DNA from: a virus | DNA length: 14,378 nt | Direction: 5' to 3' (one strand) | Virus genome (UHGV): UHGV-2151295 | Shown: piece after piece, positions 1-14,378 of the stretch | How positions within the stretch are numbered: the stretch's first letter is position 1 | How the letters are laid out: each line of letters starts with the position of its first letter | Program-made: the position numbers and the translations under genes | The notes under the pieces: generated by a model | Databases searched by the model: none | Told to the model about the DNA's origin: nothing | What the model saw: the letters and a program-made list of their open reading frames with translations, nothing else

Positions 1-105
1 CTTGCCACCACCCCGCAGAACGGGCATTCCCTGCTCCTGCCAGTTCTGAATGGTACGGATACTCGCACCGAAAATGTCAGCCAGCTGCTTTTTGTTGACT
101 TCCAT
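1..105 (-). CDS. nu1: Terminase small subunit Nu1, N-terminal 35 codons (gene continues beyond left edge of window)
   Basis: Reverse-complement translation from ATG at 105..103 gives MEVNKKQLADIFGASIRTIQNWQEQGMPVLRGGGK, which I recognise as the lambda Nu1 N-terminus (winged-helix cosB-binding domain). Truncated by the window edge. Confidence 0.9.
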   Translation of the reverse strand, partial: MEVNKKQLADIFGASIRTIQNWQEQGMPVLRGGGK

Positions 106-119
106 TGTTCATTCCACGG

Positions 120-300
120 ACAAAAACAGAGAAAGGAAACGACAGAGGCCAAAAAGCTCGTTTTCAGCACCTGTCGTTTCCTTTCTTTTCATAGGGTGTT
201 TTAAATAAAAACATTAGGTTACGGCGAAGAAGAACGGAAACGCCTTAAACCGGAAAATTTTCATAAATAGCGAAAACCCGCGCGCCTTCCGCCCCGTGAG
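120..300. other. cos region (cosB plus cosN-equivalent at about 283..294)
   Basis: Sequence between the Nu1 start and position 282 matches, in reverse complement, the lambda left-end leader (CGCGGGTTTTCGCTATTTATGAAAATTTTCCGGTTTAAGGCG...) with a few substitutions. The 12 nt where lambda has its cohesive end read GGGCGGAAGGCG here on the minus strand. Confidence 0.7.
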
Positions 301-442: not shown

Positions 443-763
443 ATGTCCATAAAGGTATTCAGAAGTGACCTTCAGACTGAGAGTGAATCAGACTATCGTA
501 ATTGGCTTGGCGATAATCCAGACGGATATGTTGTCAATGCATTGAAGCGAACCAGAGGTAAAGGTAATAAATCTGACGAACGCTTTACCAGAATCCATAG
601 AGCATCTTGCAAAACGATTAATCCCCTGAAACGCAAGATCGATAAAACAGGATTCACAACTGGAGATTATCAAAAAATATGCTCAACCAACTTCCTCAAT
701 GTTGAAAATGAAGCAAAGAAAATGACAGGTCTGACGAGCATCATCAAATGTCGATGCATCTAA
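443..763 (+). CDS. Hypothetical protein, 106 aa, Lys/Arg-rich, at the bor locus
   Basis: ORF track 425..763; AGGAG at 431..435 sits 7 nt upstream of ATG 443, so 443 is the likelier start. AT-rich. Same orientation as lambda bor but the sequence is not Bor (no lipoprotein signal). No family recognised. Confidence 0.45.
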   Translation: MSIKVFRSDLQTESESDYRNWLGDNPDGYVVNALKRTRGKGNKSDERFTRIHRASCKTINPLKRKIDKTGFTTGDYQKICSTNFLNVENEAKKMTGLTSIIKCRCI

Positions 764-1143: not shown

Positions 1144-1422
1144 TCATCTTACACACTGCGTTCGAATGTATTGCTGCAAGCCTCGGATCATTTTATCACT
1201 GGTTTCAATCCGCTTTCTAAGGGTGAAATAATCCCGTTGAGCGGTGTCAGTAAGTCTGGGGCTGGCGCCATCATCCACGCCGGAGGCGGCGGTGATTTTA
1301 TGCATGTCGGGACAGACTGCATTGAAGCGCAGCCGCTTACGCCCAGCAGAAACATCAGCACGTAGACTTTCGATAACCTGCTCATTGCTGCCCCCACAAA
1401 CAGACTTCACGCTCAATCTCAC
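1144..1422 (-). CDS. rz: Spanin inner-membrane subunit Rz-like, apparently N-terminally short (92 aa, GTG start)
   Basis: C-terminal 70 aa ([15 protein letters not shown]...[18 protein letters not shown]...) align to lambda Rz. The frame has an in-frame TGA at 1431..1429, so the ORF cannot extend to encode the N-terminal TM anchor of a 153-aa Rz. Confidence 0.65.
1188..1385 (-). CDS. rz1: Spanin outer-membrane lipoprotein Rz1 (embedded in Rz, +1 frame)
   Basis: [19 protein letters not shown] lipobox followed by the proline-rich [13 protein letters not shown]...TPLNGIISP motif characteristic of lambda Rz1. ATG at 1385..1383 overlaps the endolysin stop. Confidence 0.7.
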
Positions 1423-1696
1423 GGCGAGTCATCAGCCCTTTCCATTGCTTACCGCCAGCGTATGTCCAGCGACGTAGCTGGTCACATGCGCCTTTGATAT
1501 CGCCCTGGTTTATTTTGCGAAGAAGCGTCGATGTTCTGAAATTGCCAGCACCCACGTTGTAGACGAACGAGTAAAGAGCGCCGCGCGTTGTTTCCGGTAT
1601 ATCGACTTTGATGTACGGGTTAATTTGTCTGGCGACCGTGGCAAGGTCTTTATTCAGGAGGGCTTTGCATTCTGCTTCGGTATACGTTTTAGATGG
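1382..1696 (-). pseudogene. Endolysin remnant: C-terminal about 104 codons of a GH24 (T4-lysozyme-like, R21/RrrD-type) lysozyme, with no start codon and no catalytic N-terminus
   Basis: Minus-strand translation [104 protein letters not shown]. It is in the same frame as ren and begins 2 codons after the ren TGA (1699..1697). The N-terminal about 60 aa that carry the catalytic Glu/Asp/Thr triad in this family are absent. Confidence 0.7.
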
Positions 1697-1987
1697 TCAT
1701 CTTTTAACTCCATATACTGCCAATACCCGTTTCATCGCGGCACTCTGGCGACACTCCTTAAAAATCAGGTTCGTGCTCATCTTTCCTTCCCGTTCTTCCC
1801 TGGTAGCAAACCGGTAATACACCGTTCGCCAGACCTTACCTTCGATAACCAGAAGACCTGCCCGTGCCATTTTAGCCGCGGCCTGATTTATGCTGGTTAC
1901 TGTTGCGCCTGTTAGCGCGGCAACGTCCGGCGCACAGAAGCTATTATGCGTCCCCAGGTAATGAATAATTGCCTCTTTGCCCGTCAT
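1697..1987 (-). CDS. ren: Ren protein (Rex-exclusion resistance), 96 aa
   Basis: Translation MTGKEAIIHYLGTHNSFCAPDVAALTGATVTSINQAAAKMARAG... recognised as lambda Ren; lies directly downstream of P as in lambda. Confidence 0.85.
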   Translation of the reverse strand: MTGKEAIIHYLGTHNSFCAPDVAALTGATVTSINQAAAKMARAGLLVIEGKVWRTVYYRFATREEREGKMSTNLIFKECRQSAAMKRVLAVYGVKR

Positions 1988-2685
1988 ACACTTGCTCCTT
2001 TCAGTCCGAACTTAGCTTTGATTTCTGCGATCTTCGCCAGAGCCTGTGCACGATTTAGAGGTCTACCGCCCATGACAGGAAGTTGTTTTACTGGTTCAGG
2101 GATCGCCTCACCACGGTTAATTCTCGCAGTCATATGGACAAGCTCATCTGCGGCCTTACGGCGTAATTCCGCATCAGTAAGCGCATTGGCCCGCATGTTC
2201 TGATACAGGTTGGTAATCAGCCAGTAGTGCGCGTTTGATTTCCACGGATAAGACTCCGCATCCGGATACAGGCCTCGCTTCCGGCAATACTCGTAAACCA
2301 TATCAACCAGCTCGCTGACGTTTGGCAGTCCGGCGGTAACGGATGCTTCTTCCCGGCACCATGCAACAAACTGCCCGGGTGATGGCAGAAATGGTCGATT
2401 CTGCCGACGGGCTACGCGCATTCCTGCGTTAACCTGTTCCATCGTGGTGATCCCGTTTTCCCGGAAAGCCAGCACCCACTGGCGGCGGATTTCGTTCAGT
2501 TCGTTCTGGTCCCGGTTAGCTAGGCTCGCCGGGAAAGTTGCCAGTAACTGGCTGAACACACCATTGATGATCTGCGCTACCTGTTGTACCTGCGGCTTTT
2601 CGTCGTACTGTTCCGGCATGTTGTTGGCGATCCGACGCATCTGCTCACGGTCAAAGTTAACCATCTGTGCGGCGATGTTTTTCAT
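1984..2685 (-). CDS. P: Replication protein P (DnaB helicase loader), 233 aa
   Basis: Translation MKNIAAQMVNFDREQMRRIANNMPEQYDEKPQVQQVAQIINGVF... recognised as near-identical to lambda P; 4-nt overlap with O stop. Confidence 0.95.
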   Translation of the reverse strand: MKNIAAQMVNFDREQMRRIANNMPEQYDEKPQVQQVAQIINGVFSQLLATFPASLANRDQNELNEIRRQWVLAFRENGITTMEQVNAGMRVARRQNRPFLPSPGQFVAWCREEASVTAGLPNVSELVDMVYEYCRKRGLYPDAESYPWKSNAHYWLITNLYQNMRANALTDAELRRKAADELVHMTARINRGEAIPEPVKQLPVMGGRPLNRAQALAKIAEIKAKFGLKGASV

Positions 2686-3581
2686 AAATCCACCCCGTAA
2701 ATCCAGTCAGTGTTTGTCAGGTCGAGTTTTGGTTTGCTGGCTGTCACGCCTGCCTGTTGCTTGTTACGGTTGATTTCGAGCTGGGTCCACTTGTCGCGGA
2801 GTTTGGCCGGACTCAGCACGTTACCGGACCAGAAGTTGTCCTGGCAGGCCCAGCGGAAAAGCACACACATATCGCGGTGGTTACGTCCGTCACGTTCACG
2901 CATCAGGCGGATATCGTTAGCCCACCCAGCAAAATTCGGTTTTCTGGCTGATGGCGCGATGGTCTTCACCATGTCAAACATCCACTCTGCGGCGGTCAGG
3001 TCTTCTGCTGTTCCCCACTTGCTGCCGCTCTGAATTGCAGCATCCGGTTTAACCACAGAAAGATCGTTTTCTGGCTGGTAAGAGGATTCGCCAGAATTCT
3101 CGGACGAATAATCTTTTCTTTTTTCTTTTGTAATAGTGTCTTTTGTGTCCCCCTGTTTTGAGGGATAGCAATCCCCCAATTTGAGGGATGTTTTATCCCT
3201 CGTTTTAGGGGATTTTCCCTCGTTTTGAGGGATACACCATTCTGAGATGTTTTTATTTGGTCCAAACATGCCGCCTTGCTGCTTGATAATATTCATTCTG
3301 ACGAGTTCTAACTTGGCTTCATTGCACCGTTTGACAGGTAACTTTGTAATCTCGCTAAGTTGAGAATCGGTGATTCTGTCCATTGGTTTATTCCACCCAT
3401 AGGTTTTACGCAGAATGGCAAGCAGCACTTTAAACTGTCGCTTGGTCAGATCTGCGCCCGAATAAGCCTCAAGCAGCATATTTGATAGTCTGGCGTAACC
3501 ATCATCGAGATCTGCCACATTACGCTCCTGTCCGGCAAAGTTACCTCTGCCGAAGTTGAGTATTTTTGCTGTATTTGTCAT
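2682..3581 (-). CDS. O: Replication initiator protein O, 299 aa
   Basis: Translation MTNTAKILNFGRGNFAGQERNVADLDDGYARLSNMLLEAYSGADLTKRQFKVLLAIL... recognised as lambda O; contains the ori iterons internally. Confidence 0.95.
   Translation of the reverse strand: MTNTAKILNFGRGNFAGQERNVADLDDGYARLSNMLLEAYSGADLTKRQFKVLLAILRKTYGWNKPMDRITDSQLSEITKLPVKRCNEAKLELVRMNIIKQQGGMFGPNKNISEWCIPQNEGKSPKTRDKTSLKLGDCYPSKQGDTKDTITKEKRKDYSSENSGESSYQPENDLSVVKPDAAIQSGSKWGTAEDLTAAEWMFDMVKTIAPSARKPNFAGWANDIRLMRERDGRNHRDMCVLFRWACQDNFWSGNVLSPAKLRDKWTQLEINRNKQQAGVTASKPKLDLTNTDWIYGVDL
3090..3240. repeat. ori-lambda: four about 18-bp O-binding iterons (about 3155..3236) plus adjacent AT-rich unwinding region (about 3090..3150)
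   Basis: Seen directly: tandem copies of ATCCCTCAAAAC/TCCCTCGTTTTAGGGGA-type inverted-repeat iterons (tccccctgttttgaggga, atcccccaatttgaggga, atccctcgttttagggga, ttccctcgttttgaggga), preceded by an A/T-rich tract inside the O coding sequence. Confidence 0.85.
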
Positions 3582-3591
3582 AATGACTCCT

Positions 3592-3668
3592 GTTGATAGA
3601 TCCAGTAATGACCTCAGAACTCCATCTGGATTTGTTCAGAACGCTCGGTTGCCGCCGGGCGTTTTTTA
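3592..3668 (+). ncRNA. oop: OOP antisense RNA (about 77 nt), antisense to the 3' end of cII
   Basis: Sequence gttgatagatccagtaatgacctcagaactccatctggatttgttcagaacgctcggttgccgccgggcgtttttt matches my recollection of lambda OOP RNA; ends in a GC-rich hairpin plus T6 terminator at 3662..3667. Confidence 0.7.
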
Positions 3669-3907
3669 TTGGTGAGAATCGCAGCAACTTGTCGCGCCAA
3701 TCGAGCCATGTCGTCGTCAACGACCCCCCATTCAAGAACAGCAAGCAGCATTGAGAACTTTGGAATCCAGTCTCTCTTCCACCTGCTGATCTGCGACTTA
3801 TCAACTCCTACAGCTTCCGCTGTCTTCTCAGTTCCAAGCATTGCGATTTTGTTAAGCAACGCACTCTCGATTCGTAGAGCCTCGTTGCGTTTGTTTGCAC
3901 GAACCAT
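3614..3907 (-). CDS. cII: Transcriptional activator CII, 97 aa
   Basis: Translation from the internal Met of ORF 3614..3967: MVRANKRNEALRIESALLNKIAMLGTEKTAEAVGVDKSQISRWKRDWIPKFSMLLAVLEWGVVDDDMARLARQVAAILTNKKRPAATERSEQIQMEF, recognised as lambda CII. The upstream extension of the ORF is spurious. Confidence 0.95.
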   Translation of the reverse strand: MVRANKRNEALRIESALLNKIAMLGTEKTAEAVGVDKSQISRWKRDWIPKFSMLLAVLEWGVVDDDMARLARQVAAILTNKKRPAATERSEQIQMEF

Positions 3908-3984
3908 ATGTAAGTATTTCCTTAGATAACAATTGATTGAATGTATGCAAATAAATGCATACACCATAGGTGTGGTTTAATTTG

Positions 3985-3999
3985 ATGCCCTTTTTCAGG
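3985..3999 (-). promoter_or_regulatory. nutR boxB hairpin (N-utilisation site, between cro and cII)
   Basis: Minus-strand sequence GCCCTGAAAAAGGGC: a 5-bp GC stem with a GAAAA-type loop, the canonical lambda boxB-right. Confidence 0.7.
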
Positions 4000-4025
4000 G
4001 CTGGGATGTGTAAGAGCGGGGTTAT

Positions 4026-4235
<210 letters not shown>

Positions 4236-4252
4236 TTAGTACATGCAACTAT

Positions 4253-4316
4253 TATCACCGCTAGAGGTAAAATAGTCAACACGCACGGTGTTAGATATTT
4301 ATCCCTTGCGGTGATA
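4253..4316. promoter_or_regulatory. Right operator oR1 (4253..4269), oR2 (4277..4293), oR3 (4300..4316) with divergent pR (toward cro, -) and pRM (toward cI, +)
   Basis: Three 17-bp partially palindromic TATCACCGC-type operators seen directly: tatcaccgctagaggta, caacacgcacggtgtta, tatcccttgcggtgata. pR -35 TTGACT and -10 GATAAT are visible on the minus strand. Confidence 0.85.
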
Positions 4317-4323
4317 GATTTAA

Positions 4324-5040
<717 letters not shown>

Positions 5041-5071
5041 TTGTTTTATTTTTCACGTAATAGGATGATTT

Positions 5072-5833
5072 ATGACACAGTTTCAACTTGCATTAATCGC
5101 TAGAGAAGTTGATGGAGAAGTCATCCATCTTCGCACCAAAGACGGATACATCAATGCCACCGCGATGTGCAAGTCTGCGGGGAAGCTACTTGCTGACTAT
5201 ACACGACTAAAAACAACACAAGATTTTTTTGATGAATTATCACGCGATATGGGGATTCCCATATCGGAGTTAATTCAATCATTTAAAGGCGGAAGAGCAG
5301 AGAATCAAGGGACTTGGGTTCATCCAGACATCGCAATTAATTTAGCTCAGTGGCTATCTCCAAAATTTGCAGTGCAAGTATCGAGATGGGTGCGTGAGTG
5401 GATGTCAGGTGAAAGAGCGCCTGCCGAACTCCCTATCCACCTTAAGCGGTATATGACAAACCGAGGCAGAGTTCCTCATACGCACTTTTCTATGCTTAAT
5501 GAACTGACGTTTAACTTGGTTGCGCCACTTGAACAGGCCGGATATACGCTGCCAGAAAAAATGGTCCCTGATATTTCAGAGGGTAGGGTTTTCTCGCAAT
5601 GGCTCCGTGACAACCGGGGGGTTGAGCCGAAGACATTCCCAACATATAACCATGAGTACCCAGATGGCCGGACATTCCCGGTACGTCTATACCCAAACGA
5701 ATATCTTGCAGATTTCAAACAACACTTCAACGAAGTGTGGCTGCCTCAGTACGCTCCTAAATATTTTGCTGAACGAGACCAAAGGGCATTGACGTTGATT
5801 GAGAAAATCATGCTACCTGACCTTGATTCCTAA
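5072..5833 (+). CDS. KilA-N domain protein, 253 aa, occupying the rexA/rexB position downstream of cI; candidate BstA-like abortive-infection/exclusion protein
   Basis: N-terminal about 110 aa carry the KilA-N signature (DGYINATAMCKSAGKLLADYTRLKTTQDF...ENQGTWVHPDIAINLAQWLSPKFAVQVSRWV). C-terminal about 140 aa have no fold I recognise. Same strand as cI, 31 bp downstream, followed by a strong terminator; no rexA or rexB is present. Confidence 0.8.
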   Translation: MTQFQLALIAREVDGEVIHLRTKDGYINATAMCKSAGKLLADYTRLKTTQDFFDELSRDMGIPISELIQSFKGGRAENQGTWVHPDIAINLAQWLSPKFAVQVSRWVREWMSGERAPAELPIHLKRYMTNRGRVPHTHFSMLNELTFNLVAPLEQAGYTLPEKMVPDISEGRVFSQWLRDNRGVEPKTFPTYNHEYPDGRTFPVRLYPNEYLADFKQHFNEVWLPQYAPKYFAERDQRALTLIEKIMLPDLDS

Positions 5834-5841
5834 ATGTTATT

Positions 5842-5867
5842 CCCGGCCACAGAGCCGGGTTTTCTTT
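5842..5867 (+). terminator. Rho-independent terminator ending the cI operon (timm-equivalent)
   Basis: CCCGGC(cacaga)GCCGGG hairpin followed by TTTTCTTT, 9 bp after the stop of the KilA-N gene. Confidence 0.6.
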
Positions 5868-6024
5868 GCCTCACGATCCCCCTCACCCAAGAACACATAA
5901 CCAATTGTATTTATTTGGAAATTAATAGATACAACTCACTAAACATCGCAATTCAGATCTCTCGATCACCTTCCCAATCCACACAACCCTGCAAAAAATA
6001 AATCTATATAAAAAACATACAGAT

Positions 6025-6090
6025 AACCATCTGCGGTGATAAATTATCTCTGGCGGTGTTGACATAAATACCACTGGCGGTGATACTAAG
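6025..6090 (+). promoter_or_regulatory. Left operator oL3 (6025..6041), oL2 (6045..6061), oL1 (6069..6085) and promoter pL (-35 TTGACA 6059..6064, -10 GATACT 6082..6087)
   Basis: Seen directly: ...atctgcggtgataaattatctctggcggtgttgacataaataccactggcggtgatact, the classic lambda pL/oL arrangement; oL1 taccactggcggtgata is identical to lambda oL1 as I recall it. Confidence 0.9.
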
Positions 6091-6126
6091 CACATCAGCA
6101 GGACGCACTGACCACCATGAAGGTGA

Positions 6127-6157
6127 CGCTCTTAAAAATTTAGCCCTGAAGAAGGGC
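6127..6157 (+). promoter_or_regulatory. nutL (boxA CGCTCTTAA about 6127..6135; boxB GCCCTGAAGAAGGGC 6143..6157)
   Basis: Canonical boxB hairpin with GAAGA loop downstream of pL, preceded by a boxA-like CGCTCTTA. Confidence 0.8.
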
Positions 6158-6267
6158 AGCATTCAAAGCAGAAGGCTTTGAGTAGCGCGAAATGCAGCTG
6201 CAAGACAGCAACCGTGGAGATAAGCATCACGGCGCGTTACTCAAAGCTAACTGGCAGGAGAATCCAG

Positions 6268-6591
6268 ATGGATGCACAAACACGCCGCCGCGAACGTCGC
6301 GCAGAGAAACAGGCTCAATGGAAAGCAGCAAATCCCCTGTTGGTTGGGGTAAGCGCAAAACCAGTTAACCGCCCTATTCTCTCGCTGAATCGCAAACCGA
6401 AATCACGAGTAGAAAGCGCACTAAATCCGATAGACCTTACAGTGCTGGCTGAATACCACGAACAGATTGAAAGCAACCTGCAACGTATTGAGCGCAAGAA
6501 TCAGCGCACATGGTACAGCAAGCCTGGCGAACGCGGCATAACATGCAGTGGACGCCAGAAAATTAAGGGAAAATCGATTCCTCTTACCTAG
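6268..6591 (+). CDS. N: Antiterminator N, 107 aa
   Basis: Translation from the internal ATG of ORF 6178..6591: MDAQTRRRERRAEKQAQWKAANPLLVGVSAKPVNRPILSLNRKPKSRVESALNPIDLTVLAEYH... recognised as lambda N (Arg-rich boxB-binding motif at the N-terminus). The upstream ORF extension begins at a TTG and is rejected. Confidence 0.9.
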   Translation: MDAQTRRRERRAEKQAQWKAANPLLVGVSAKPVNRPILSLNRKPKSRVESALNPIDLTVLAEYHEQIESNLQRIERKNQRTWYSKPGERGITCSGRQKIKGKSIPLT

Positions 6592-7146
6592 TTACTTAGA
6601 TATTGGCCTTGGCTTTATCTCAATATTATATGGATCATAGCTGGCAACTAATTCAGTCCAGTAAATATCCTCAATAGGGAATAATATATGCTTCCCGTTC
6701 CATCGGGAAAAAGTTTTGTTCAACACACCAAGCTCAATCAACTCACTAATGTATGGGAATTGTTTTGATGTAACCACATACTTCCTGCCTTCATTAAGGG
6801 CTGCGCACAAAACCATAGATTGCTCTTCTGTAAGGTTTTGAATTACTGATCGCACTTTATCGTTTTGCATCTTAATGCGTTTTCTTAGCTTAAATCGCTT
6901 ATATCTGGCGCTGGCAATAGCTGATAATCGATGCACATTAATTGCTAGCGAAAATGCAAGAGCAAAGACGAAAACATGCCACACATGAGGAATACCGATT
7001 CTCTCATTAACATATTCAGGCCAGTTATCTGGGCTTAAAAGCAGAAGTCCAACCCAGATAACGATCATATACATGGTTCTCTCCAGAGGTTCATTACTGA
7101 ACACTCGTCCGAGAATAACGAGTGGATCCATTTCTATACTCATCAA
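6592..7146 (-). CDS. sieB: Superinfection exclusion protein SieB, 184 aa (membrane protein)
   Basis: Translation MMSIEMDPLVILGRVFSNEPLERTMYMIVIWVGLLLLSPDNWPEYVNERIG... recognised as lambda SieB; convergent with N as in lambda. Confidence 0.9.
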   Translation of the reverse strand: MMSIEMDPLVILGRVFSNEPLERTMYMIVIWVGLLLLSPDNWPEYVNERIGIPHVWHVFVFALAFSLAINVHRLSAIASARYKRFKLRKRIKMQNDKVRSVIQNLTEEQSMVLCAALNEGRKYVVTSKQFPYISELIELGVLNKTFSRWNGKHILFPIEDIYWTELVASYDPYNIEIKPRPISK

Positions 7147-7270
7147 ACTGTAGGGGTTGTAATAGTTTATCCGATTTCTCGCTGTAGGGGTACACGAGAA
7201 CCACCGAGCCTGATGTGGTTAAAAGACAGGCACAATCTTTACTACCGCAATCCACTATTTAAGGTGATAT

Positions 7271-7357
7271 ATGGAAGAAGAATTTGAAGAGTTCGAAGAG
7301 CATCCTCAGGATGTGATGGAACAATACCAGGACTATCCGTATGACTACGACTATTGA
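7271..7357 (+). CDS. Small acidic ORF (lambda orf28-like), 28 aa
   Basis: ATG 7271, translation MEEEFEEFEEHPQDVMEQYQDYPYDYDY, stop TGA 7355..7357, overlapping the ral start; corresponds to the small ORF upstream of ral in lambda. Confidence 0.55.
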   Translation: MEEEFEEFEEHPQDVMEQYQDYPYDYDY

Positions 7358-7541
7358 TAAAAATCAATGGTGTGGACAATTCAAGCGATGCAATGGATGC
7401 AAGCTGCAATCGGAATGCATGGTTAAGCCTGAAGAAATGTTTCCTGTAATGGAAGACGGGAAATATGTCGATAAATGGGCAATACGAACGACGGCAATGA
7501 TTGCCAGAGAACTTGGTAAACAGAACAACAAAGCTGCCTGA
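7341..7541 (+). CDS. ral: Restriction alleviation protein Ral, 66 aa
   Basis: Translation MTTTIDKNQWCGQFKRCNGCKLQSECMVKPEEMFPVMEDGKYVDKWAIRTTAMIARELGKQNNKAA recognised as lambda Ral. Confidence 0.9.
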   Translation: MTTTIDKNQWCGQFKRCNGCKLQSECMVKPEEMFPVMEDGKYVDKWAIRTTAMIARELGKQNNKAA

Positions 7542-7677
7542 TAGTGGCCTTTATTTTTGGCATAAATAACAGAATAAACACTGCACTGTGTATTCATTCC
7601 AACGAGTGAATACACGGAGCAATGTCGCTCGTAACTAAACAGGAGCCGACTTGTTCTGATTATTGGAAATCTTCTTT

Positions 7678-7703
7678 GCCCTCCAGTGTGAGGGCGATTT
7701 TTT
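7678..7703 (+). terminator. Rho-independent terminator in the pL operon (tL2-like), just upstream of ea10
   Basis: GCCCTC(cagtgtg)GAGGGC hairpin followed by GATTTTTT. Confidence 0.5.
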
Positions 7704-7723
7704 ATCTATGAGGATATGAATAG

Positions 7724-8092
7724 ATGTCAAACATCAAAAAATACATCATTGATTACGACTGGAAAGCATCAATAGAAATTGAAATCGACCATGACGTAAT
7801 GACAGAGGAAAAACTTCACCAGATTAATAATTTCTGGTCAGACTCTGAATACCGACTCAATAAACACGGCTCTGTATTAAATGCTGTATTAATCATGCTG
7901 GCGCAACATGCTCTGCTTATCGCAATTTCAAGCGACTTAAATGCATATGGTGTTGTGTGTGAGTTCGACTGGAATGATGGAAATGGTCAGGAAGGATGGC
8001 CTCCAATGGATGGTAGCGAAGGAATAAGAATTACCGATATCGATACATCAGGAATATTTGATTCAGATGATATGACTATCAAGGCCGCCTGA
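7724..8092 (+). CDS. ea10: Ea10 protein, 122 aa
   Basis: Translation MSNIKKYIIDYDWKASIEIEIDHDVMTEEKLHQINNFWSDSEYRLNKHG... recognised as lambda Ea10. Confidence 0.85.
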   Translation: MSNIKKYIIDYDWKASIEIEIDHDVMTEEKLHQINNFWSDSEYRLNKHGSVLNAVLIMLAQHALLIAISSDLNAYGVVCEFDWNDGNGQEGWPPMDGSEGIRITDIDTSGIFDSDDMTIKAA

Positions 8093-8164
8093 GTGCGGCT
8101 TTACCGCATACCAATAACGCTTCACTCGAGGCGTTTTTCGTTATGTATAAATAAGGAGCACACC

Positions 8165-8329
8165 ATGCAATATGCCATTGCAGGGTGGCCTGTTGCTGGC
8201 TGCCCTTCCGAATCTTTACTTGAACGAATCACCCGTAAATTACGTGACGGATGGAAACGCCTTATCGACATACTTAATCAGCCAGGAGTCCCAAAGAATG
8301 GATCAAACACTTATGGCTATCCAGACTAA
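8165..8329 (+). CDS. cIII: CIII protein (FtsH/HflB inhibitor that stabilises CII), 54 aa
   Basis: ATG 8165; translation [54 protein letters not shown] recognised as lambda CIII. Confidence 0.9.
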   Translation: MQYAIAGWPVAGCPSESLLERITRKLRDGWKRLIDILNQPGVPKNGSNTYGYPD

Positions 8330-8441
8330 ATTCACTATCGCCACTTTTATTGGCGATGAAAAGATGTTTCGTGAAGCCGTCGACGCTTATAAAAAATGGA
8401 TATTAATGCTGAAACTGAGATCAAGCAAAAGCATTCACTAA
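8298..8441 (+). CDS. kil: Kil (host-killing, FtsZ inhibitor), 47 aa
   Basis: Internal Met of ORF 8172..8441: [47 protein letters not shown] recognised as lambda Kil; overlaps the cIII 3' end and gam 5' end as in lambda. Confidence 0.85.
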
Positions 8442-8812
8442 CCCCCTTTCCTGTTTTCCTAATCAGCCTGGCATTTCGCGGGCGATATTTTCACAGCTAT
8501 TTCAGGAGTTCAGCCATGAACGCTTATTACATTCAGGATCGTCTTGAGGCTCAGAGCTGGGCGCGTCACTACCAGCAGATCGCCCGTGAAGAGAAAGAGG
8601 CAGAACTGGCAGACGACATGGAAAAAGGCCTGCCCCAGCACCTGTTTGAATCGCTATGCATCGATCATTTGCAACGCCACGGGGCCAGCAAAAAAGCCAT
8701 TACCCGTGCGTTTGATGACGATGTTGAGTTTCAGGAGCGCATGGCAGAACACATCCGGTACATGGTTGAAACCATTGCTCACCACCAGGTTGATATTGAT
8801 TCAGAGGTATAA
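8396..8812 (+). CDS. gam: Gam (RecBCD inhibitor), 138 aa long form; GamS would start at the MNAYYIQ Met near 8516
   Basis: Translation [68 protein letters not shown]... recognised as lambda Gam. Confidence 0.9.
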
Positions 8813-8817
8813 AACGG

Positions 8818-9603
8818 ATGAGTACAGCACTCGCAACGCTGGCAGGGAAGCTGGCTGAACGTGTCGGCATGGATTCTGTCGACCCACAGGAACTGATCAC
8901 CACTCTTCGCCAGACGGCATTTAAAGGCGATGCCAGCGATGCGCAGTTCATCGCATTGCTGATCGTCGCCAACCAGTACGGCCTTAATCCGTGGACGAAA
9001 GAAATTTACGCCTTTCCTGACAAGCAGAACGGCATCGTTCCGGTGGTGGGCGTTGATGGCTGGTCCCGCATCATCAATGAAAACCAGCAGTTTGATGGCA
9101 TGGACTTTGAGCAGGACAATGAATCCTGTACATGCCGGATTTACCGCAAGGACCGCAATCATCCGATCTGCGTTACCGAATGGATGGATGAATGCCGCCG
9201 CGAACCATTCAAAACCCGCGAAGGCAGAGAAATCACGGGGCCGTGGCAGTCGCATCCTAAACGGATGTTACGGCATAAAGCCATGATTCAGTGTGCCCGT
9301 CTCGCCTTCGGATTTGCTGGTATCTATGACAAGGATGAAGCCGAGCGCATTGTCGAAAATACCGCATACACTGCAGAACGTCAGCCGGAACGCGACATCA
9401 CTCCGGTTAACGATGAAACCATGCAGGAGATTAACACTCTGCTGATCGCCCTGGATAAAACATGGGATGACGACTTATTGCCGCTCTGTTCCCAGATATT
9501 TCGCCGCGACATTCGAGCATCGTCAGAACTGACACAGGCCGAAGCAGTGAAAGCTCTTGGATTCCTGAAACAGAAAGCCACTGAGCAGAAGGTGGCAGCA
9601 TGA
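8818..9603 (+). CDS. bet: Bet (Red-beta single-strand annealing protein), 261 aa
   Basis: Translation [59 protein letters not shown]... recognised as lambda Bet. Confidence 0.95.
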
Positions 9604-10280
9604 CACCGGACATTATACTGCAGCGTACCGGGATCGACGTGAGAGCTGTCGAACAGGGGGATGATGCGTGGCACAAATTACGGCTCGGCGTCATCACCGC
9701 TTCAGAAGTTCACAATGTGATAGCAAAACCCCGCTCCGGAAAGAAATGGCCTGACATGAAAATGTCCTACTTCCACACCCTGCTTGCCGAGGTTTGCACC
9801 GGTGTGGCTCCGGAAGTTAACGCTAAGGCGCTGGCCTGGGGAAAACAGTACGAGAACGACGCCAGAGCCCTGTTTGAGTTTACTTCCGGCGTGAATGTTA
9901 CTGAATCCCCGATCATCTATCGCGACGAAAGTATGCGCACCGCCTGCTCTCCCGATGGTTTATGCAGTGACGGCAATGGCCTTGAGCTGAAATGCCCGTT
10001 TACCTCCCGGGATTTCATGAAGTTCCGGCTCGGTGGTTTCGAGGCCATAAAGTCGGCTTACATGGCCCAGGTGCAGTACAGCATGTGGGTGACACGAAAA
10101 GATGCCTGGTACTTTGCCAACTATGACCCGCGCATGAAGCGTGAAGGCCTGCATTATGTCGTGGTTGAGCGGGATGAAAATTACATGGCGAGTTTTGACG
10201 AGATGGTGCCGGAGTTCATCGAAAAAATGGACGAGGCACTGGCTGAAATTGGTTTTGTATTTGGGGAGCAATGGCGATGA
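9600..10280 (+). CDS. exo: Exo (Red-alpha 5'-3' exonuclease), 226 aa
   Basis: Translation [68 protein letters not shown]... recognised as lambda Exo; 4-nt overlap with bet. Confidence 0.95.
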
Positions 10281-10459
10281 AGCATCCTCACGATAATATC
10301 CGGGTAGGCGCGATCACTTTCGTCTACTCCGTTACAAAGCGAGGCTGGGTATTTCCCGGTCTTTCTGTTATCCGAAATCCACTGAAAGCACAGCGGCTGG
10401 CTGAAGAGATAAATAATAAACGAGGGGCTGTATGCACAAAGCATCTCCTGTTGAATTAA
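10271..10459 (+). CDS. Small protein, lambda orf60a-like, 62 aa
   Basis: [55 protein letters not shown]... in the position and orientation of lambda orf60a, immediately after exo. Confidence 0.55.
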
Positions 10460-10623
10460 GAACGAGTATCGAGATGGCACATAGCCTCGCTCAAATTGGA
10501 GTCAGGTTTGTGCCAATACCAGTAGAAACAGACGAAGAATTTCATACGTTAGCCGCATCCCTTTCACAAAAGCTGGAAATGATGGCGGCGAAAGCAGAAG
10601 CAAACGAGAGAGACCCGGCATGA
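10432..10623 (+). CDS. Small protein, lambda orf63-like, 63 aa
   Basis: [66 protein letters not shown]; position and sequence as I recall for lambda orf63. Confidence 0.6.
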   Translation: MHKASPVELRTSIEMAHSLAQIGVRFVPIPVETDEEFHTLAASLSQKLEMMAAKAEANERDPA

Positions 10624-10699
10624 CAACAACAGAATGCATTTTTCTGGCAGCGGGCTTCATATTCTGTGTGCTTATGCTTGCCGACATGGGACTTGTTCA

Positions 10700-10915
10700 A
10701 TGACACCTCAGCAAGAAAACGCCCTTCGCAGCATTGCCCGTCAGGCTAATTCTGAAATCAAAAATGCCAGACAGCAGTTTCCGGATAAAAACGTCGATGA
10801 CATTTGCCGTAGCGTACTGAAGAAGCACCGCGAAACGGTAGCGCTGATGGGATTCACACCGACTCATTTAAGCCTGGCGATCGGCATGTTAAACGGCGTC
10901 TTTAAGGAACGGTGA
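10700..10915 (+). CDS. Small protein, lambda orf61-like, about 71 aa
   Basis: Internal Met of ORF 10634..10915: MTPQQENALRSIARQANSEIKNARQQFPDKNVDDICRSVLKKHRETVALMGFTPTHLSLAIGMLNGVFKER. The upstream extension is unlikely. Confidence 0.55.
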   Translation: MTPQQENALRSIARQANSEIKNARQQFPDKNVDDICRSVLKKHRETVALMGFTPTHLSLAIGMLNGVFKER

Positions 10916-11013
10916 ACATGAAAAGCAAAATCATCAGGGAGCTACAGGCTCCTTTTTTATTGTTCGCATTCACCCTCAAGCGTATTAACCAACAATTCAG
11001 GGATTAATGAAAG

Positions 11014-11232
11014 ATGGCAGACATCATTGATTCAGCATCAGAAATCGAAGAATTACAGCGCAATACAGCAATAAAAATGCGTCGTCTGAACCACCAGGCT
11101 ATATCTGCCACTCATTGTTGTGAGTGTGGCGATCCGATAGATGAACTAAGACGTCTGGCCGTTCAGGGTTGTCGGACTTGTGCAAGTTGCCAGGAGGAGA
11201 TCGAACTTAAGAACAAACAATGGGGATTGTGA
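11014..11232 (+). CDS. TraR/DksA-family C4 zinc-finger protein, 72 aa
   Basis: Translation MADIIDSASEIEELQRNTAIKMRRLNHQAISATHCCECGDPIDELRRLAVQGCRTCASCQEEIELKNKQWGL: an N-terminal helix followed by paired CxxC motifs (C-x2-C ... C-x2-C-x2-C), typical of the short phage TraR-like members of the DksA family. Confidence 0.7.
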   Translation: MADIIDSASEIEELQRNTAIKMRRLNHQAISATHCCECGDPIDELRRLAVQGCRTCASCQEEIELKNKQWGL

Positions 11233-11279
11233 TGGCCTCAAAGCAGCAAATTTCAACATCGTCCAACTGAGGTGTAAAA

Positions 11280-11558
11280 ATGTTCAGAATCATTTTTCCT
11301 AACACCTGGTACGTCGACCACCACGGCACTCCCTGCAAAATCCTGCGTTCTACCCACAACAAAGTTCACTACATCCGAAAAGGCAGAACATGTATCGCCA
11401 GCATGTTCCGCTTTAATCATGACTTTGAACCTGTGAATAAAGCTGATGCAGATCGGATAGCAGAAGAGATCGAAACGGCAGAACACATTAAGAAGTTACG
11501 TGACATGCGTTCAAAAAGCAGAGGTAACCATGGAATCATACAGCCTCACACTCGATGA
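11280..11558 (+). CDS. Hypothetical protein, 92 aa, upstream of xis
   Basis: ORF with a GAGGTG Shine-Dalgarno 8 nt upstream of ATG 11280; no recognisable domain. The 3' end overlaps the xis start in another frame. Confidence 0.45.
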   Translation: MFRIIFPNTWYVDHHGTPCKILRSTHNKVHYIRKGRTCIASMFRFNHDFEPVNKADADRIAEEIETAEHIKKLRDMRSKSRGNHGIIQPHTR

Positions 11559-11880
11559 GGCCTGTCAGTTTCTCAAGATATCCAGACCTACCGCTACCAA
11601 CTGGATACGAACAGGCCGCCTACAGGCAACACGCAAAGACCCCACTAAACCAAAATCTCCTTACCTCACAACGCGACAAGCCTGCATTGCGGCGCTTCAG
11701 TCTCCGCTGCATACTATCAAGGTGAGCGCGGGTGATGGCATAACAGAGGAAAGAAAATGTCACTCTTCCGCAGAGGTGAAATATGGTACGCCAGTTTCAC
11801 ATTGCCGAACGGTAAAAGATTTAAACAGTCTCTTGGAACAAAGGACAAAAGGCAGGCGACAGAACTCCATGACAAGCTAA
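11530..11880 (+). CDS. xis: Excisionase Xis, P22-type, 116 aa
   Basis: Internal Met of ORF 11500..11880: [50 protein letters not shown]... recognised as near-identical to P22 Xis; 3' end overlaps the int start by about 124 nt. Confidence 0.85.
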
Positions 11881-12920
11881 AGGCTGAAGCATGGCGGGTC
11901 AGCAAACTTGGTGAAATACCTGATATAACGTTCGAGGAAGCGTGTGTCAGGTGGCTTGAAGAGAAAGCACATAAAAAATCACTGGACGATGACAAAAGCC
12001 GGATCGGATTCTGGCTTCAACATTTCGCAGGAATGCAACTAAGAGACATTACTGAATCAAAAATTTATTCAGCAATGCAGAAAATGACGAACCGGCGTCA
12101 TGAGGAAAACTGGAAACTCAGGGCAGAAGCATGCAGAAAAAAAGGGAAACCTGTTCCAGAATACACGCCAAAACCAGCGTCCGTTGCAACGAAGGCTACG
12201 CATCTTTCATTTATAAAGGCTCTGCTAAGAGCCGCAGAGCGTGAATGGAAAATGCTGGATAAGGCACCAATTATTAAAGTGCCTCAACCAAAGAATAAAC
12301 GGATCCGCTGGCTGGAGCCCCATGAAGCACAAAGGCTGATTGATGAATGTCCGGAGCCATTAAAGTCTGTTGTTGAATTTGCACTGGCAACAGGCTTAAG
12401 ACGCTCGAACATCATCAACCTTGAATGGCAACAAATAGATATGCAGCGCCGGGTGGCATGGATAAACCCGGAAGAGAGTAAATCAAACCGCGCAATTGGC
12501 GTTGCGCTGAATGATACTGCATGTCGCGTATTGAAAAAACAAATCGGGAATCATCACCGTTGGGTATTTGTGTACAAGGAAAGCTGTACCAAACCAGACG
12601 GAACGAAAGCGCCAACAGTAAGGAAGATGCGGTATGACGCAAACACAGCCTGGAAAGCGGCGCTGAGACGGGCTGGTATTGATGATTTCAGATTTCACGA
12701 CTTGAGACACACTTGGGCAAGTTGGCTGGTTCAAGCCGGAGTCCCGTTGTCAGTGTTACAGGAAATGGGAGGCTGGGAGTCTATCGAAATGGTTCGTCGA
12801 TATGCTCACCTTGCACCTAATCACCTTACCGAACACGCACGGCAAATAGACTCGATCCTAAACCCATCGGTCCCAAATTTGTCCCAGTCAAAAAATAAGG
12901 AAGGTACTAATGATGTGTAA
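11757..12920 (+). CDS. int: Tyrosine integrase, P22-type (thrW-targeting), 387 aa
   Basis: Translation [53 protein letters not shown]... recognised as P22 Int; conserved R...HxxR...Y catalytic box ([13 protein letters not shown]...MVRRYAHL) present. Stop 4 bp from the tRNA 3' end. Confidence 0.95.
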
Positions 12921-12924
12921 CTTA

Positions 12925-12970
12925 TTGATTTAAATGGTGCCGATAATAGGAGTCGAACCTACGACCTTCG
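12925..12970. other. Prophage attachment site (int-proximal att core, overlapping the 3' half of tRNA-Thr)
   Basis: Inference: the integrase gene ends 4 bp from the tRNA CCA end, and P22-type integrases recombine within the anticodon-to-3' portion of thrW. The exact core boundaries cannot be set without the second att copy, which is outside the window. Confidence 0.45.
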
Positions 12971-13000
12971 CATTACGAATGCGCTGCTCTACCAACTGAG
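12925..13000 (-). tRNA. thrW: tRNA-Thr (anticodon CGU), 76 nt including encoded CCA
   Basis: Minus-strand sequence GCCGATATAGCTCAGTTGGTAGAGCAGCGCATTCGTAATGCGAAGGTCGTAGGTTCGACTCCTATTATCGGCACCA folds as a cloverleaf by eye: 7-bp acceptor stem, GTTCGACTC T-arm, anticodon loop TTCGTAA giving anticodon CGT. Confidence 0.9.
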
Positions 13001-13124
13001 CTATATCGGCCCTGAAAGGACATGTTCACGAACGTGAATCACGGTGGACAAGGTTAAAACTAACCGGGCGATGCGTCAATGGCCTTGTGAATCAAATGGC
13101 TACTTTTGCATCACCCGGTTTTAT

Positions 13125-14378
13125 TTACGCACGAATGGTGTAATCACCAATGCCGATCCACTTGTAAGTGGTCAGTGCTTCCAGCCCCATTGGGCCACGT
13201 GCGTGCAGTTTTTGTGTGCTTACCGCCACTTCCGCACCCAGTCCAAACTGGCCGCCGTCGGTAAAACGCGTAGAGGCGTTAACGTAAACAGCGGACGAAT
13301 CCACTTCGTTAACAAAACGCTGGGCGTTGCGCATATCGCGGGTCAGGATCGCATCGGAGTGTTGCGTGCCGTGTTCACGAATATGGGCGATGGCATCGTC
13401 AAGATCGCTGACGATTTTGACGTTCAAATCTAATGACAGAAACTCATCGTCATACTCTTCGGCTTTAACCGCCACCACCTTCGCGGGGCCTGCCTGCAAC
13501 TGTGTCAGCGCAGCTGCATCTGCGTGTAATGTCACGCCGCTTTCCGCCATTTGTTTGCTTAATACGGGCAGGAAGCTATCGGCGATGTTTTTATTCACCA
13601 GCAACGTTTCTACCGTATTACATGTGCTCGGACGCTGAGTTTTGGCGTTGACGATCACTTTTAATGCTTCAGCGATCTCTGCACTTTCATCAACGTAAAT
13701 ATGGCATACGCCTATACCACCTGTGATCACCGGGATCGTCGACTGTTCGCGGCACAGTTTATGCAAACCAGCGCCACCACGCGGGATCAGCATGTCGATG
13801 TATTTATCCATACGCAGCATTTCACTGACCAGCGCACGGTCAGGATTATCAATCGCCTGCACGGCACCCGCCGGTAAGCCGCAGGATTTCAGGGCGTCCT
13901 GAATCACCGCCACCGTTGCAGCGTTAGTGCGACACGTTTCTTTGCCACCGCGCAGGATCACCGCATTACCGGTTTTCAGGCACAGCGAAGCGACATCAAC
14001 CGTCACGTTCGGGCGCGCTTCATAAATCACGCCAATAACCCCCAGCGGTACGCGACGACGCTCAAGACGCAGGCCGCTGTCCAGTACGCCGCCATCGATT
14101 ACCTGCCCCACCGGATCGGCGAGGTTGCACACCTGACGTACATCGTCGGCAATGCCTTTCAGCCGTGCGGGCGTCAGTGCCAGACGGTCAAGCATCGCTT
14201 CGCTAAGGCCATTGGCTCGCGCGTCAGCAACATCCTGGGCGTTAGCGTTGAGGATGATTTCGCTTTGTGCTTCCAGTTCATCGGCGATTTTTTCCAGCAC
14301 GCGATTTTTTTCGCGGCTGGAGAGTTGCGCTAATTTATACGAGGCTTGCTTCGCGGCAATGCCCATTTGTTCCAGCAT
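13125..14378 (-). CDS. proA: Gamma-glutamyl phosphate reductase ProA, 417 aa, start codon at the window edge
   Basis: Translation [66 protein letters not shown]... recognised as enterobacterial ProA; the proA-thrW adjacency matches the E. coli chromosome. Confidence 0.95.

Follow-up and report, generated by a model that had tools for sequence, protein, structure and literature searches.

The laboratory allele nin5 of lambda starts at the boundary between ren and tR2, removes tR2 and the nin genes, and ends before Q. Q, pR', S, R and Rz remain in this phage, which is viable and grows independently of N. The prophage analyzed here lies in a viral DNA of 14,378 nt (UHGV virus genome UHGV-2151295, hereafter 'the window'). 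It resembles nin5 in the left end of its deletion at the ren/tR2 boundary, and in that the downstream genes have been moved directly behind O-P-ren. It is not of the nin5 type, however, as the loss continues through Q, the late promoter region, the holin gene and the 63 endolysin codons at the 5' end of R, and Rz also suffered a deletion.

Loss of lytic functions through deletion is likewise found in the integrated cryptic lambdoid prophages of K-12 (DLP12, Rac and Qin) and in 'grounded' prophages (PMC6379469, PMC7918800). DLP12 lacks most early genes but retains Q, holin, RrrD, Rz and nohD; the element in the window is roughly its reciprocal. Unlike the K-12 remnants, which are old and widespread, the allele in the window is rare and near-identical to intact relatives. 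Discrete strain-specific defects are also carried by the defective prophages of O157 Sakai, which may nonetheless respond to induction, replicate and interact with other prophages in the same cell (PMC2669165). These defects were catalogued and experimentally tested, whereas the window prophage is known from sequence alone.

The trapped lambda fragment of Y836 (cIII-cI857-O-P-ren) also contains the immunity and replication genes through ren and nothing downstream (PMC3640518). On induction, this cIII-ren fragment kills the host by replication from oriLambda, and P is itself lethal (PMC3640518). Unlike Y836, which is without int, xis, kil and both att sites, the window prophage keeps these and also cos/Nu1, and excision and possibly packaging would therefore still be open to it. 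For lysis, the comparison is the SAR endolysin (RrrD, or R of phage 21) with Rz/Rz1 (PMC9239132, PMC6139136), and the remnants in the window belong to the same families (PF00959, PF03245 and PF06085). Of this set, only Rz1 is complete in the window, where the lysozyme is reduced to its last 102 residues, which are non-catalytic, and Rz to its C-terminal half.

The prophage is of the lambda-like type and is sited beside E. coli proA. The window is very probably the right arm of a lambda-type prophage at thrW, with the Cro/oR, N/nut and O-P-ren of lambda. The integration site, thrW, is a tRNA-Thr(CGU) gene on the minus strand (12935..13010), identified by Rfam and by sequence, and proA (13125-14378, minus strand) lies beyond it. 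The tyrosine integrase gene (PF00589; 11802-12920, plus strand) adjoins this tRNA gene, as expected at the att site of a lambdoid prophage. Two annotated and apparently complete prophages, L001 and L026, have the same thrW site and integrase as the window. A Shigella Sf-type serotype-converting phage, which uses thrW too, was ruled out. The integrase stop at 12920 is only 14 nt from thrW at 12935, and therefore the gtr genes have no space.

The other end of the window contains the first 35 codons of Nu1, the lambda-type small terminase subunit (1..105, minus strand), which was read from the sequence (ATGGAAGTCAACAAAAAGCAG...). Homologues in L026, L002 and L029 are annotated as DNA-packaging protein or as PF07471 Phage_Nu1. 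The window and all contigs with the deletion allele end inside Nu1, and the prophage beyond Nu1 is outside the window. The cosN 12-mer (283..294, minus strand) is GGGCGGAAGGCG, a natural variant of the lambda sequence GGGCGGCGACCT, and a lambda-like cosB is next to it. Positions 1-700 of the window were found whole in 36 complete E. coli genomes, with 98.6-99.9% identity. The unusual 12-mer is common to these 36 genomes, including the apparently complete SF-468 prophage, and it was therefore ruled out as a further lesion. Between Rz and cos is an ORF of 106 aa (443..763, plus strand), which is convergent with the pR/late transcript. It is recorded as WP_000025003.1 'hypothetical protein' in L004 and L026, and it gave no match in Pfam, PHROG or PADLOC.

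All 22 early CDS were free of stops and indels, in agreement with the original prediction of an apparently intact immunity, replication, Red and int/xis set. P (1984-2685) and O (2682-3581), both on the minus strand, aligned to lambda without gaps and with 98.7% identity. The same identity was obtained when the window from 4267 to 1690 was aligned with lambda 38000-40577. The minus strand also contains cII (3614-3907), the boxB of nutR (3987-4001), cro (4026-4226), whose product is identical to lambda Cro, and a pR-like promoter (4279-4251), which a consensus scan read as TTGACT-17-GATAAT.

On the plus strand, the cI repressor gene (4327-5040, with the domains HTH_3 and Peptidase_S24) is followed by a gene for a BstA-like KilA-N protein (5072-5833). 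For the same protein, other entries record PF26567 BstA_C. According to the annotation of a relative and an intact CDS in the window, sieB is also present. The boxB of nutL (6143-6157) and an intact N antiterminator gene (6268-6591) are on the same strand. The boxB elements at nutR (minus strand) and nutL (plus strand) have the exact lambda sequence, with 0 such matches expected by chance. The window thus has both the CI/Cro switch with a divergent pR and the N gene with nutL and nutR that are typical of a lambdoid prophage. Further along the plus strand (8165..12920) are cIII, kil, gam, bet, exo, small ORFs, an HTH_17 excisionase-like gene and the integrase gene, all of which are intact. Rfam identified a Lambda_thermo RNA element at 8152-8210. 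This cIII thermometer and thrW were the only RNA elements found by Rfam, which gave none at the joint.

The first joint, J1, is at 1690..1691 on the minus strand, 7 nt past the ren stop (lambda coordinate 40577), where the sequence is fused to the boundary between codons 63 and 64 of R. Only the dinucleotide TA is common to both sides. Intact ren (1697..1987, minus strand) matched PHROG 142 'Ren-like exclusion protein' (E=5e-42), and its product showed 0 differences from that of L001 over 96 aa. Its TGA-C stop is in frame with the R remnant. The minus-strand translation of 1382-1990 gave the 96 aa of Ren, the TGA at 1699-1697, two codons, and 102 lysozyme residues ending in VCLWGQQ*.

The position of J1 was obtained by BLAST against L001, in which window 1690-7705 corresponded to 6323-12338 and window 1378-1691 to 3252-3565. 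The DNA lost at J1 amounts to 2,757-2,758 nt in comparison with L001, L032 and L034 (2,758 in L032 and L034), and to about 6.5 kb in comparison with L026. On the lysozyme side, window 1691..1374 was 100% identical to L032 and L034 over 318 nt. On the early side, these two relatives were 99.87% identical to the window. A third, L033, showed 1 mismatch in 11,274 nt (window 12963..1690), after which it continued with ren-ninB-dam-ninG-Q-holin.

At the position of J1, the near-identical intact prophages have ninB-(dam)-ninG-Q-holin-5'R, preceded by a tR2-type terminator. The hairpin and T-run of this terminator are 19 nt into the missing segment. The interval with Q and the late promoter/terminator region is gone in comparison with L001, L032, L033 and L034. 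Searches of the window by tblastn gave nothing significant with four Q families and three holin families, nor with the ninB/D/E/F/G/H/X, rusA, dam, PAPS reductase and Metallophos proteins. A look-up with the exact P protein yielded nothing but intact ren-ninB arrangements. The Rz-cos-Nu1 module of the window was found in L026 with 99.93% identity. L001 and L026 share the thrW site and integrase and L026 also has this module, which places both sides of the joint in one phage type.

The endolysin remnant (1382..1690, minus strand) consists of codons 64-165 and the stop of a 165-aa lysozyme of the RrrD/R21 type. The RrrD of L001, likewise 165 aa long, agreed with all 102 residues of the remnant at its positions 64-165 (100% identity, tblastn E=5.8e-68). 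The remnant matched Pfam Phage_lysozyme PF00959 at positions 34-125 of 125 only (E=4e-33), as expected of a member of the SAR endolysin family with the T4-lysozyme fold. The catalytic motif of this family is defined as E-X8-D-X5-T (PMC9239132). In the intact 165-aa relative the motif (E35/D44/T50) precedes residue 64, the first of the remnant. The SAR domain and the start codon are gone with residues 1-63, and the sole in-frame start is an internal GTG, which would give 57 aa. This 57-aa lysozyme ORF is on record solely in unrelated broken or contig-edge lysozyme genes, none of them with J1 or J2.

The original prediction had placed a deletion joint here, at coordinates that proved right, with nin genes, Q, pR', holin and tR2 missing, and with an endolysin that lacks its start codon and catalytic N-terminus. 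The alignments to lambda and the intact relatives and the tblastn results in the window bear this out, and the SAR domain is to be added to the losses. The same prediction treated Rz as present and overlooked a second lesion in it.

This second joint, J2 (1374..1375, minus strand), is 314 nt from J1. Here 202 nt of Rz have been deleted, and TA is again common to both sides. With the breakpoint marked by a slash, the parental left side reads ATGAGCAGGTTA/ACCGCG (L032) and the right side GCGACTA/TCGAAAGTC (L026), and the window reads ATGAGCAGGTTATCGAAAGTC. The remnant of Rz, the i-spanin (1144..1374, minus strand), contains only the C-terminal approximately 76 codons, out of frame with the Rz start codon. 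It matched positions 52-125 of 126 of Pfam Phage_lysis PF03245, and aligned to residues 72-145 of the L001 Rz. It does not have the N-terminal transmembrane domain and full periplasmic domain of an i-spanin, which this frameshifting deletion destroyed.

The ORF of Rz1, the o-spanin lipoprotein, is complete (1188..1385, minus strand; 65 aa; Pfam Rz1 PF06085, E=6e-13). It is an embedded +1 frame lipoprotein with the lipobox LLGVSGC, as expected of an o-spanin. Because of the 202-nt deletion, this ORF now starts at the Rz ATG (MSRL followed by the Rz1 sequence); the native Rz1 frame is seen in L004. Exact-sequence look-ups of the 65-aa and 69-aa versions of Rz1 and of the 92-aa Rz frame gave no record.

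Both joints are seamless, without IS sequence or target duplication, which ruled out an IS-mediated deletion. Homologous or Red-mediated recombination between repeats was ruled out by the 2 nt that are all each joint has in common.

The deletion allele was found in none of 5,426 complete E. coli genomes, in which no place covered at least 80% of the ren-to-R query, and the same was true of 50,697 phage records. The exact J1 and J2 k-mers were absent from the GTDB representative genomes, the JGI metagenomes and IMG/VR (2.9 million viral contigs). The allele was recovered by looking up the rarer exact O protein. J1 and J2 were both present in two ENA metagenome assemblies (L029 and L035), which matched the window at 100% identity for 7.6 and 11.0 kb, though these two may share a sample, come from related samples or be the window's own source. 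They are MEGAHIT-style contigs with k=127 and k=119 under separate analysis accessions. From these results, the joints are probably real and the allele is rare.

We consider it very likely that the locus represents recent, rare and ordinary prophage decay by two illegitimate deletions, which would leave a defective, Q-less prophage unable to lyse. The element is integrated and lacks lytic-growth genes that its intact relatives have, as expected of a defective (cryptic) prophage. The two deletions, with 2-nt microhomology and with neither IS element nor repeat, have both hit the late-control/lysis block. The one at J1 took away the tR2-type terminator, the nin genes, Q and its late promoter/terminator region, the holin, and, from the lysozyme, the SAR domain together with the catalytic motif. 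The one at J2 took 202 nt of Rz and killed the i-spanin, leaving the Rz1 lipoprotein alone, read from the Rz start codon. In the resulting defective prophage, the genes for repression, the SOS-cleavable repressor, N antitermination, excision, Red and replication are all intact.

On cleavage of CI, the pR transcript, modified by N at nutR, would be expected to proceed through cro-cII-O-P-ren. It would then cross the remnants of R and Rz and cos, and enter Nu1 and the late genes, whose expression would thus be N-dependent and not Q-dependent. This prediction draws on general knowledge of N antitermination. A simple consensus scan of the minus strand between ren and Nu1 detected no terminator-like site. 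The earlier claim that pR reads into the Rz/cos/Nu1 region is thus plausible, but it stands as a prediction and not as an observation. The convergent ORF at 443-763 could hold back such read-through, as could Rho-dependent termination within the untranslated remnants.

The prophage's own genes would be unable to lyse the cell, and the phage would therefore be a dead end unless a co-resident lambdoid prophage provides the lysis functions. Replication from oriLambda, P and Kil would nonetheless probably kill the induced cell. Even without Q and the lysis functions, an induced host would probably not be spared, since O/P replication, like P itself, is lethal (PMC3640518).

One observation counts against two independent deletions. 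The lesions are 314 nt apart and the 12.7-kb early region is otherwise undamaged, which two independent random events would seldom produce. One complex event, or selection against lysis functions, may have been at work instead.

It is rather unlikely that the joints have an origin other than two simple intramolecular deletions. In this alternative, two different co-resident lambdoid prophages would have undergone illegitimate exchange, or one complex template switch would have made the joints. By exchange, an L032-type phage (Terminase_2 packaging) would have been joined at J2 to an SF-468-type late arm (lambda Nu1/A). Such an origin would account for the switch of the nearest relative at J2, from L032/L034 (1691..1374, 100%) to L026 (1375..1, 99.93%), the latter stretch being only 91% identical to the 3' end of the L032 Rz and unrelated past it. 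It would also fit the 314-nt spacing of the joints, the TA at both, and the break of the contigs in Nu1, a hint that the sample contained a second late region of the lambda type. On the other hand, lambdoid mosaicism suffices for the switch, as L004 has the R 3' part and the Rz-to-cos part in one prophage (approximately 99.4%). All pieces have the order and orientation that they would have in one normal phage genome, and either packaging module occurs in thrW prophages with the same integrase.

The original prediction favored a domesticated or cryptic prophage kept for lysogen-expressed functions. On the domestication reading, selection would have favored losing Q and lysis, and the functions kept would be CI immunity, the BstA-like abortive-infection protein and SieB. 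Domestication now appears improbable. Both lesions are in the lysis/late-control block with the 22 early genes untouched, and lysogen-expressed defense genes are present, with that for the BstA-like protein directly after cI, plus sieB. The allele also came from gut metagenome assemblies, which implies a carrier at assemblable abundance in vivo. However, the vertical conservation expected of a domesticated prophage was not seen, as the allele is in the two ENA assemblies only and in none of the complete E. coli genomes, GTDB representatives, JGI metagenomes or IMG/VR contigs. Divergence from L033, on which selection on the kept genes would be judged, is essentially nil (1 mismatch in 11.3 kb), which leaves no time for selection to be detectable. 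We found no sign of lineage-wide retention or selection. Furthermore, the intact L001 and L032-L034 hold the same defense genes, so the deletion is unneeded for them, and the killing by O, P and Kil that remains makes a benefit to the host doubtful (PMC3640518).

Transmission with a helper has a similarly low probability. Late genes would be expressed from pR under N, a co-resident lambdoid prophage would provide holin, endolysin, spanin and possibly Q, and particles would be released. Cos, the start of Nu1, N/nut, O/P and int/xis are intact, and the genome has been shortened, not lengthened, so it is packageable in principle. Defective prophages of O157 have been induced, packaged and even transferred via prophage-prophage interactions (PMC2669165). 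Against this, it presupposes both intact late genes and a helper, and the allele is missing from the 2.9 million IMG/VR contigs and the 50,697 phage records.

It is very improbable that the double lesion is a rewiring, whether selected or coupled by mechanism, that made the prophage non-lytic. In such an element, pR/N would drive packaging and late genes without Q, and only Rz1, re-fused to the Rz start, would survive. It would last in gut E. coli either by carrying immunity and BstA defense while being proof against lysis, or by producing particles that need a co-resident prophage for their release. A chimeric contig with an intact true locus is most improbable of all: lambdoid prophages are rich in repeats, and the Logan assembly of ERR912043 breaks within P at window 2071, a sign of graph branching nearby, but the joints have only 2 nt in common, so that a de Bruijn path across them needs reads containing them, and both recur in the k=127 and k=119 contigs with 100% identity to the window.

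Decay by two deletions thus remains the preferred reading, and its main consequence is for annotation, outside which its importance is small. This thrW prophage is to be annotated as defective, with no Q, holin, active endolysin or i-spanin, despite its perfect-looking early half. 'Intact-looking' prophage calls made from early-region gene content can mislead, and small leftovers, the 57-aa lysozyme ORF and the Rz1 ORF among them, end up being annotated as genes. The exact breakpoints and the near-identical intact sister alleles make a clean natural pair in which to study a lambdoid prophage without late control and lysis.

Translation of the minus strand over window 1382-1990 gave Ren, a TGA stop, Pro-Ser, the sequence KTYTEAECK...VCLWGQQ and a second stop. 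L001, the thrW prophage of E. coli 2018-10-2CC, was used as the reference for the breakpoints of this joint (J1). Ren (96 aa) was identical to the L001 ren product, and the 102 residues past Pro-Ser were residues 64-165 of the L001 RrrD lysozyme (165 aa) at 100% identity. The original prediction, that the ren stop is fused to mid-endolysin, was thus correct in both description and coordinates.

The ren-side alignment paired L001 6323-12338 with window 1690-7705 (99.5%, gap-free) and the lysozyme-side alignment paired L001 3252-3565 with window 1378-1691; they overlapped at the dinucleotide TA at 1690/1691. Across the breakpoint (slash), the ren-side parent reads GACCATCTA/CATCAC and the lysozyme-side parent CCCGGTA/AAACGTATACC; the window has GACCATCTAAAACGTATACC. 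The ren-side breakpoint corresponds to lambda coordinate 40577, 7 nt past the ren stop. This stop (TGA followed by C; 1697-1699, minus) is in frame with the lysozyme remnant (1385-1696, minus), an agreement expected by chance in one case out of three. Any read-through would produce a Ren-Pro-Ser-'R fusion about 200 aa long, which is probably meaningless.

The endolysin remnant has no ATG, and its sole in-frame start is an internal GTG that opens a 57-aa ORF. It covers positions 34-125 of the 125 in Pfam Phage_lysozyme, of which the full-length protein covers 3-125. The N-terminal domain of the intact lysozyme, rich in glycine and alanine, and its E35-X8-D44-X5-T50 all fall within the missing part; E-X8-D-X5-T is the canonical lysozyme motif (PMC9239132). 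In several further E. coli assemblies (L005-L014), gene calling treated the 57-aa C-terminal ORF as a gene of its own, at contig edges or where rrrD-type genes were split, frameshifted or truncated. Independent damage to RrrD-type lysozyme appears common.

The L001 counterpart of the J1 gap was 2,757 nt long and contained ninB, ninE, ninF, ninG, Q, two tRNA genes, a class II holin gene and rrrD codons 1-63. In L032, a contig with the intact arrangement, a hairpin with a T-run lies 19 nt inside the missing segment, its stem identical to the lambda terminator after ren; the gene order ren-tR2 is known (PMC3640518). In tblastn searches of the window, Q (4 families), holin (3 families), the lambda-type transglycosylase and 11 nin-region proteins gave no significant match. 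The predicted loss of the nin genes, Q, the holin and the catalytic part of the endolysin was borne out by their absence here and their presence in L001 at J1. The classical nin5 deletion spares Q and the lysis genes; J1 resembles it at the left endpoint but runs on through Q, the holin and 63 codons of the endolysin. DLP12, the K-12 remnant, is nearly the reciprocal, keeping Q, holin, RrrD, Rz and nohD with most early genes lost (PMC7918800).

A second lesion, J2, overlooked in the original prediction, is located in Rz. Directly past the lysozyme stop the window has ATGAGCAGGTTATCGAAAGTC, and intact relatives have ATGAGCAGGTTA/ACCGCG at the Rz start and GCGACTA/TCGAAAGTC about 200 nt further on. 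At J2 (window 1374/1375, within Rz/Rz1, 1144-1385, minus), 202 nt of Rz were lost, with only the bases TA shared. Because the lost length is not divisible by three, translation from the Rz ATG has shifted to the embedded +1 frame, and its product is MSRL fused to the complete Rz1 lipoprotein (PF06085); the native Rz1 start in L004, another prophage relative, is MLTRLSKVY... What is left of the Rz frame covers only positions 52-125 of PF03245, and the transmembrane N-terminus is gone. Two-component spanins need this part of the i-spanin (PMC6139136). The window had lost Q, the late promoter region and the tR2-type terminator, and of the lysis functions the holin, the endolysin active site and the i-spanin. 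As a result of the J1 and J2 losses, the prophage codes for no holin, active endolysin or i-spanin.

A J1-spanning query found no place with at least 80% coverage among 5,426 complete E. coli genomes, of which 4,673 matched one or other half, nor among 50,697 phage records. No exact k-mer of J1 or J2 was found in GTDB representative genomes, JGI metagenomes or IMG/VR. Look-up of the exact O protein of the window recovered nine contigs. Two ENA metagenome contigs carried both joints, at 100% identity to the window over 7,581 and 10,960 nt: ERZ918205 (run ERR912043, labelled human gut metagenome; k127) and ERZ27256446 (k119). This suggested that the deletion is real in public data, or at least assembler-independent.

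Three other contigs (L032, L033 and L034) had the intact arrangement. L033 (DRR275218; Logan DRR275218_155) had a single base difference from window 12963-1690 (11,274 nt) and then continued with ren-ninB-dam-ninG-Q-holin. L032 and L034 were 99.87% identical on the early side and 100% over the lysozyme remnant plus the beginning of Rz (318 nt), the two parts being 2,758 nt apart. Judged by these near-identical sisters and by the absences, the allele is rare and arose very recently compared with its intact sister phages. It is new to complete-genome collections as an allele; as an object it is a defective lambdoid prophage. Two probable coincidences were seen: L033 from thrW to holin is also 14,378 nt, a different stretch from the window, and the window runs from a codon boundary of Nu1 precisely to the proA start codon. 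In the Logan assembly of ERR912043, a conservative one, the contig (L030, ERR912043_10719) ended inside P at window 2071, and all deletion-allele contigs broke inside Nu1. These breaks suggest other lambdoid sequences with the same P and Nu1 in the same sample.

Window 1375-1 was 99.93% identical to L026, the thrW prophage of strain SF-468. L026 shares its integrase protein with L001 and combines a full Q-holin-RrrD-Rz block with a lambda-type Nu1/A/head/tail arm. L032 was identical to the window up to J2 and had another packaging module, its Rz 3' end being only 91% identical. The nearest relative thus changes at J2, where affinity to L032 ends and affinity to L026 begins. On sequence grounds, intramolecular deletion is the simplest reading, because segment order and orientation are those of one normal lambdoid genome. 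Ordinary mosaicism, then deletion at J2, could explain the change of relative, and both J2 flanks were found in the single L004 prophage at about 99.4%. Alternatively, J2 itself may have arisen by out-of-register exchange with a second prophage. A single complex event may have made both joints, which are 314 nt apart.

The cosN cohesive-end 12-mer (283-294) was GGGCGGAAGGCG. Nine relatives had the lambda cosN sequence GGGCGGCGACCT, and L004 had GGGCGGGAGCGT. The cos region (cosN and 295-330 examined) was hybrid, L004-like before cosN and lambda-like on the cosB/Nu1 side. It is found in 36 complete E. coli genomes at 98.6-99.9% identity and is therefore a natural variant. A 106-aa ORF (443-763, plus; WP_000025003.1, 'hypothetical'), oriented convergently to the late transcript, separates Rz from cos. 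It was conserved in L004, L026 and the two ENA contigs, and had no Pfam, PHROG or PADLOC match.

Outside proA (13125-14378, minus) and the tRNA-Thr(CGU) gene thrW (12935-13010, minus) on its right side, the window is one arm of a lambdoid prophage. From the repressor outward, the minus strand carries a pR-like promoter, cro, nutR boxB, cII, O, P, ren, J1, cos and Nu1 codons 1-35. The plus strand carries cI, the KilA-N/BstA-like gene, nutL boxB, N, ral, an ea10-like gene, cIII, kil, gam, bet and exo, then several small ORFs, an HTH_17 excisionase-like gene and a tyrosine integrase gene adjoining thrW. Lambda 38000-40577 matched window 4267-1690 at 98.7% identity without gaps, Cro did not differ from lambda Cro, and both boxB sequences were exact. 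By sequence, the immunity and replication block is practically that of lambda.

All 22 L001 prophage CDS from ren to int mapped to the window without indels or internal stops, each with 0-2 amino-acid differences, which upheld the claim of an intact early gene set. Kept were genes for repression, including an SOS-cleavable repressor, N/nut antitermination, excision, Red recombination and O/P replication. A 400-nt segment (7706-8105), missing from L001 and L002 and present in L015-L024 and L032-L035, encodes a 122-aa DUF2528 protein (7724-8092, plus; PHROG 646) at the position of lambda ea10. Ral was 66 aa, versus 59 aa in L001. The cIII thermoregulator element was complete (Rfam Lambda_thermo, 8152-8210, plus; 88.5 bits).

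Lysogen-expressed functions carried were CI immunity, SieB and the 253-aa KilA-N/BstA-like protein (5072-5833, plus; PHROG 6287, E=2e-82; PADLOC BstA, E=2.5e-20; Pfam BstA_C on record). Its gene lies directly 3' of cI, where lambda has rexAB; ren is kept though rexAB is absent. In lambda, ren protects against Rex exclusion. Domestication for such functions, as originally proposed, was unsupported, though not refuted, because intact relatives share the same genes, the allele is rare, and it is too young for selection to have left a signal. The sole, mild oddity was that both lesions fell in the lysis block of an element undamaged elsewhere. By our estimate, a second deletion placed at random in the window would fall this near the first with a chance of roughly 4% (2 x 320 / 14,378). 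The original observation was therefore confirmed and extended by J2, and its interpretation stood in part, without domestication. The feature is a recent deletion of an ordinary kind that inactivated the prophage; lambdoid prophages commonly carry strain-specific defects (PMC2669165; PMC6379469).

A simple scan of the minus strand from ren to Nu1 found no terminator-like sites. From established lambda biology, the N-modified pR transcript would on induction run through ren straight into the remnants, cos and Nu1. Because of this, late-gene expression would be N-dependent and Q-independent, and probably weaker than from a Q-activated late promoter. The prophage's own genes would be unable to lyse the cell. 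Host survival is unlikely; when a lambda cIII-ren fragment is trapped, its replication from oriLambda kills the host, and P alone is lethal (PMC3640518). Kil is likewise intact in the window. The defective prophage pool of O157 Sakai provides a precedent for supply of functions by co-resident prophages (PMC2669165), and the Nu1 breaks of all deletion-allele contigs hint that the sample contains a further lambda-type late region. The phage would be a dead end unless lysis functions come from a co-resident lambdoid prophage.
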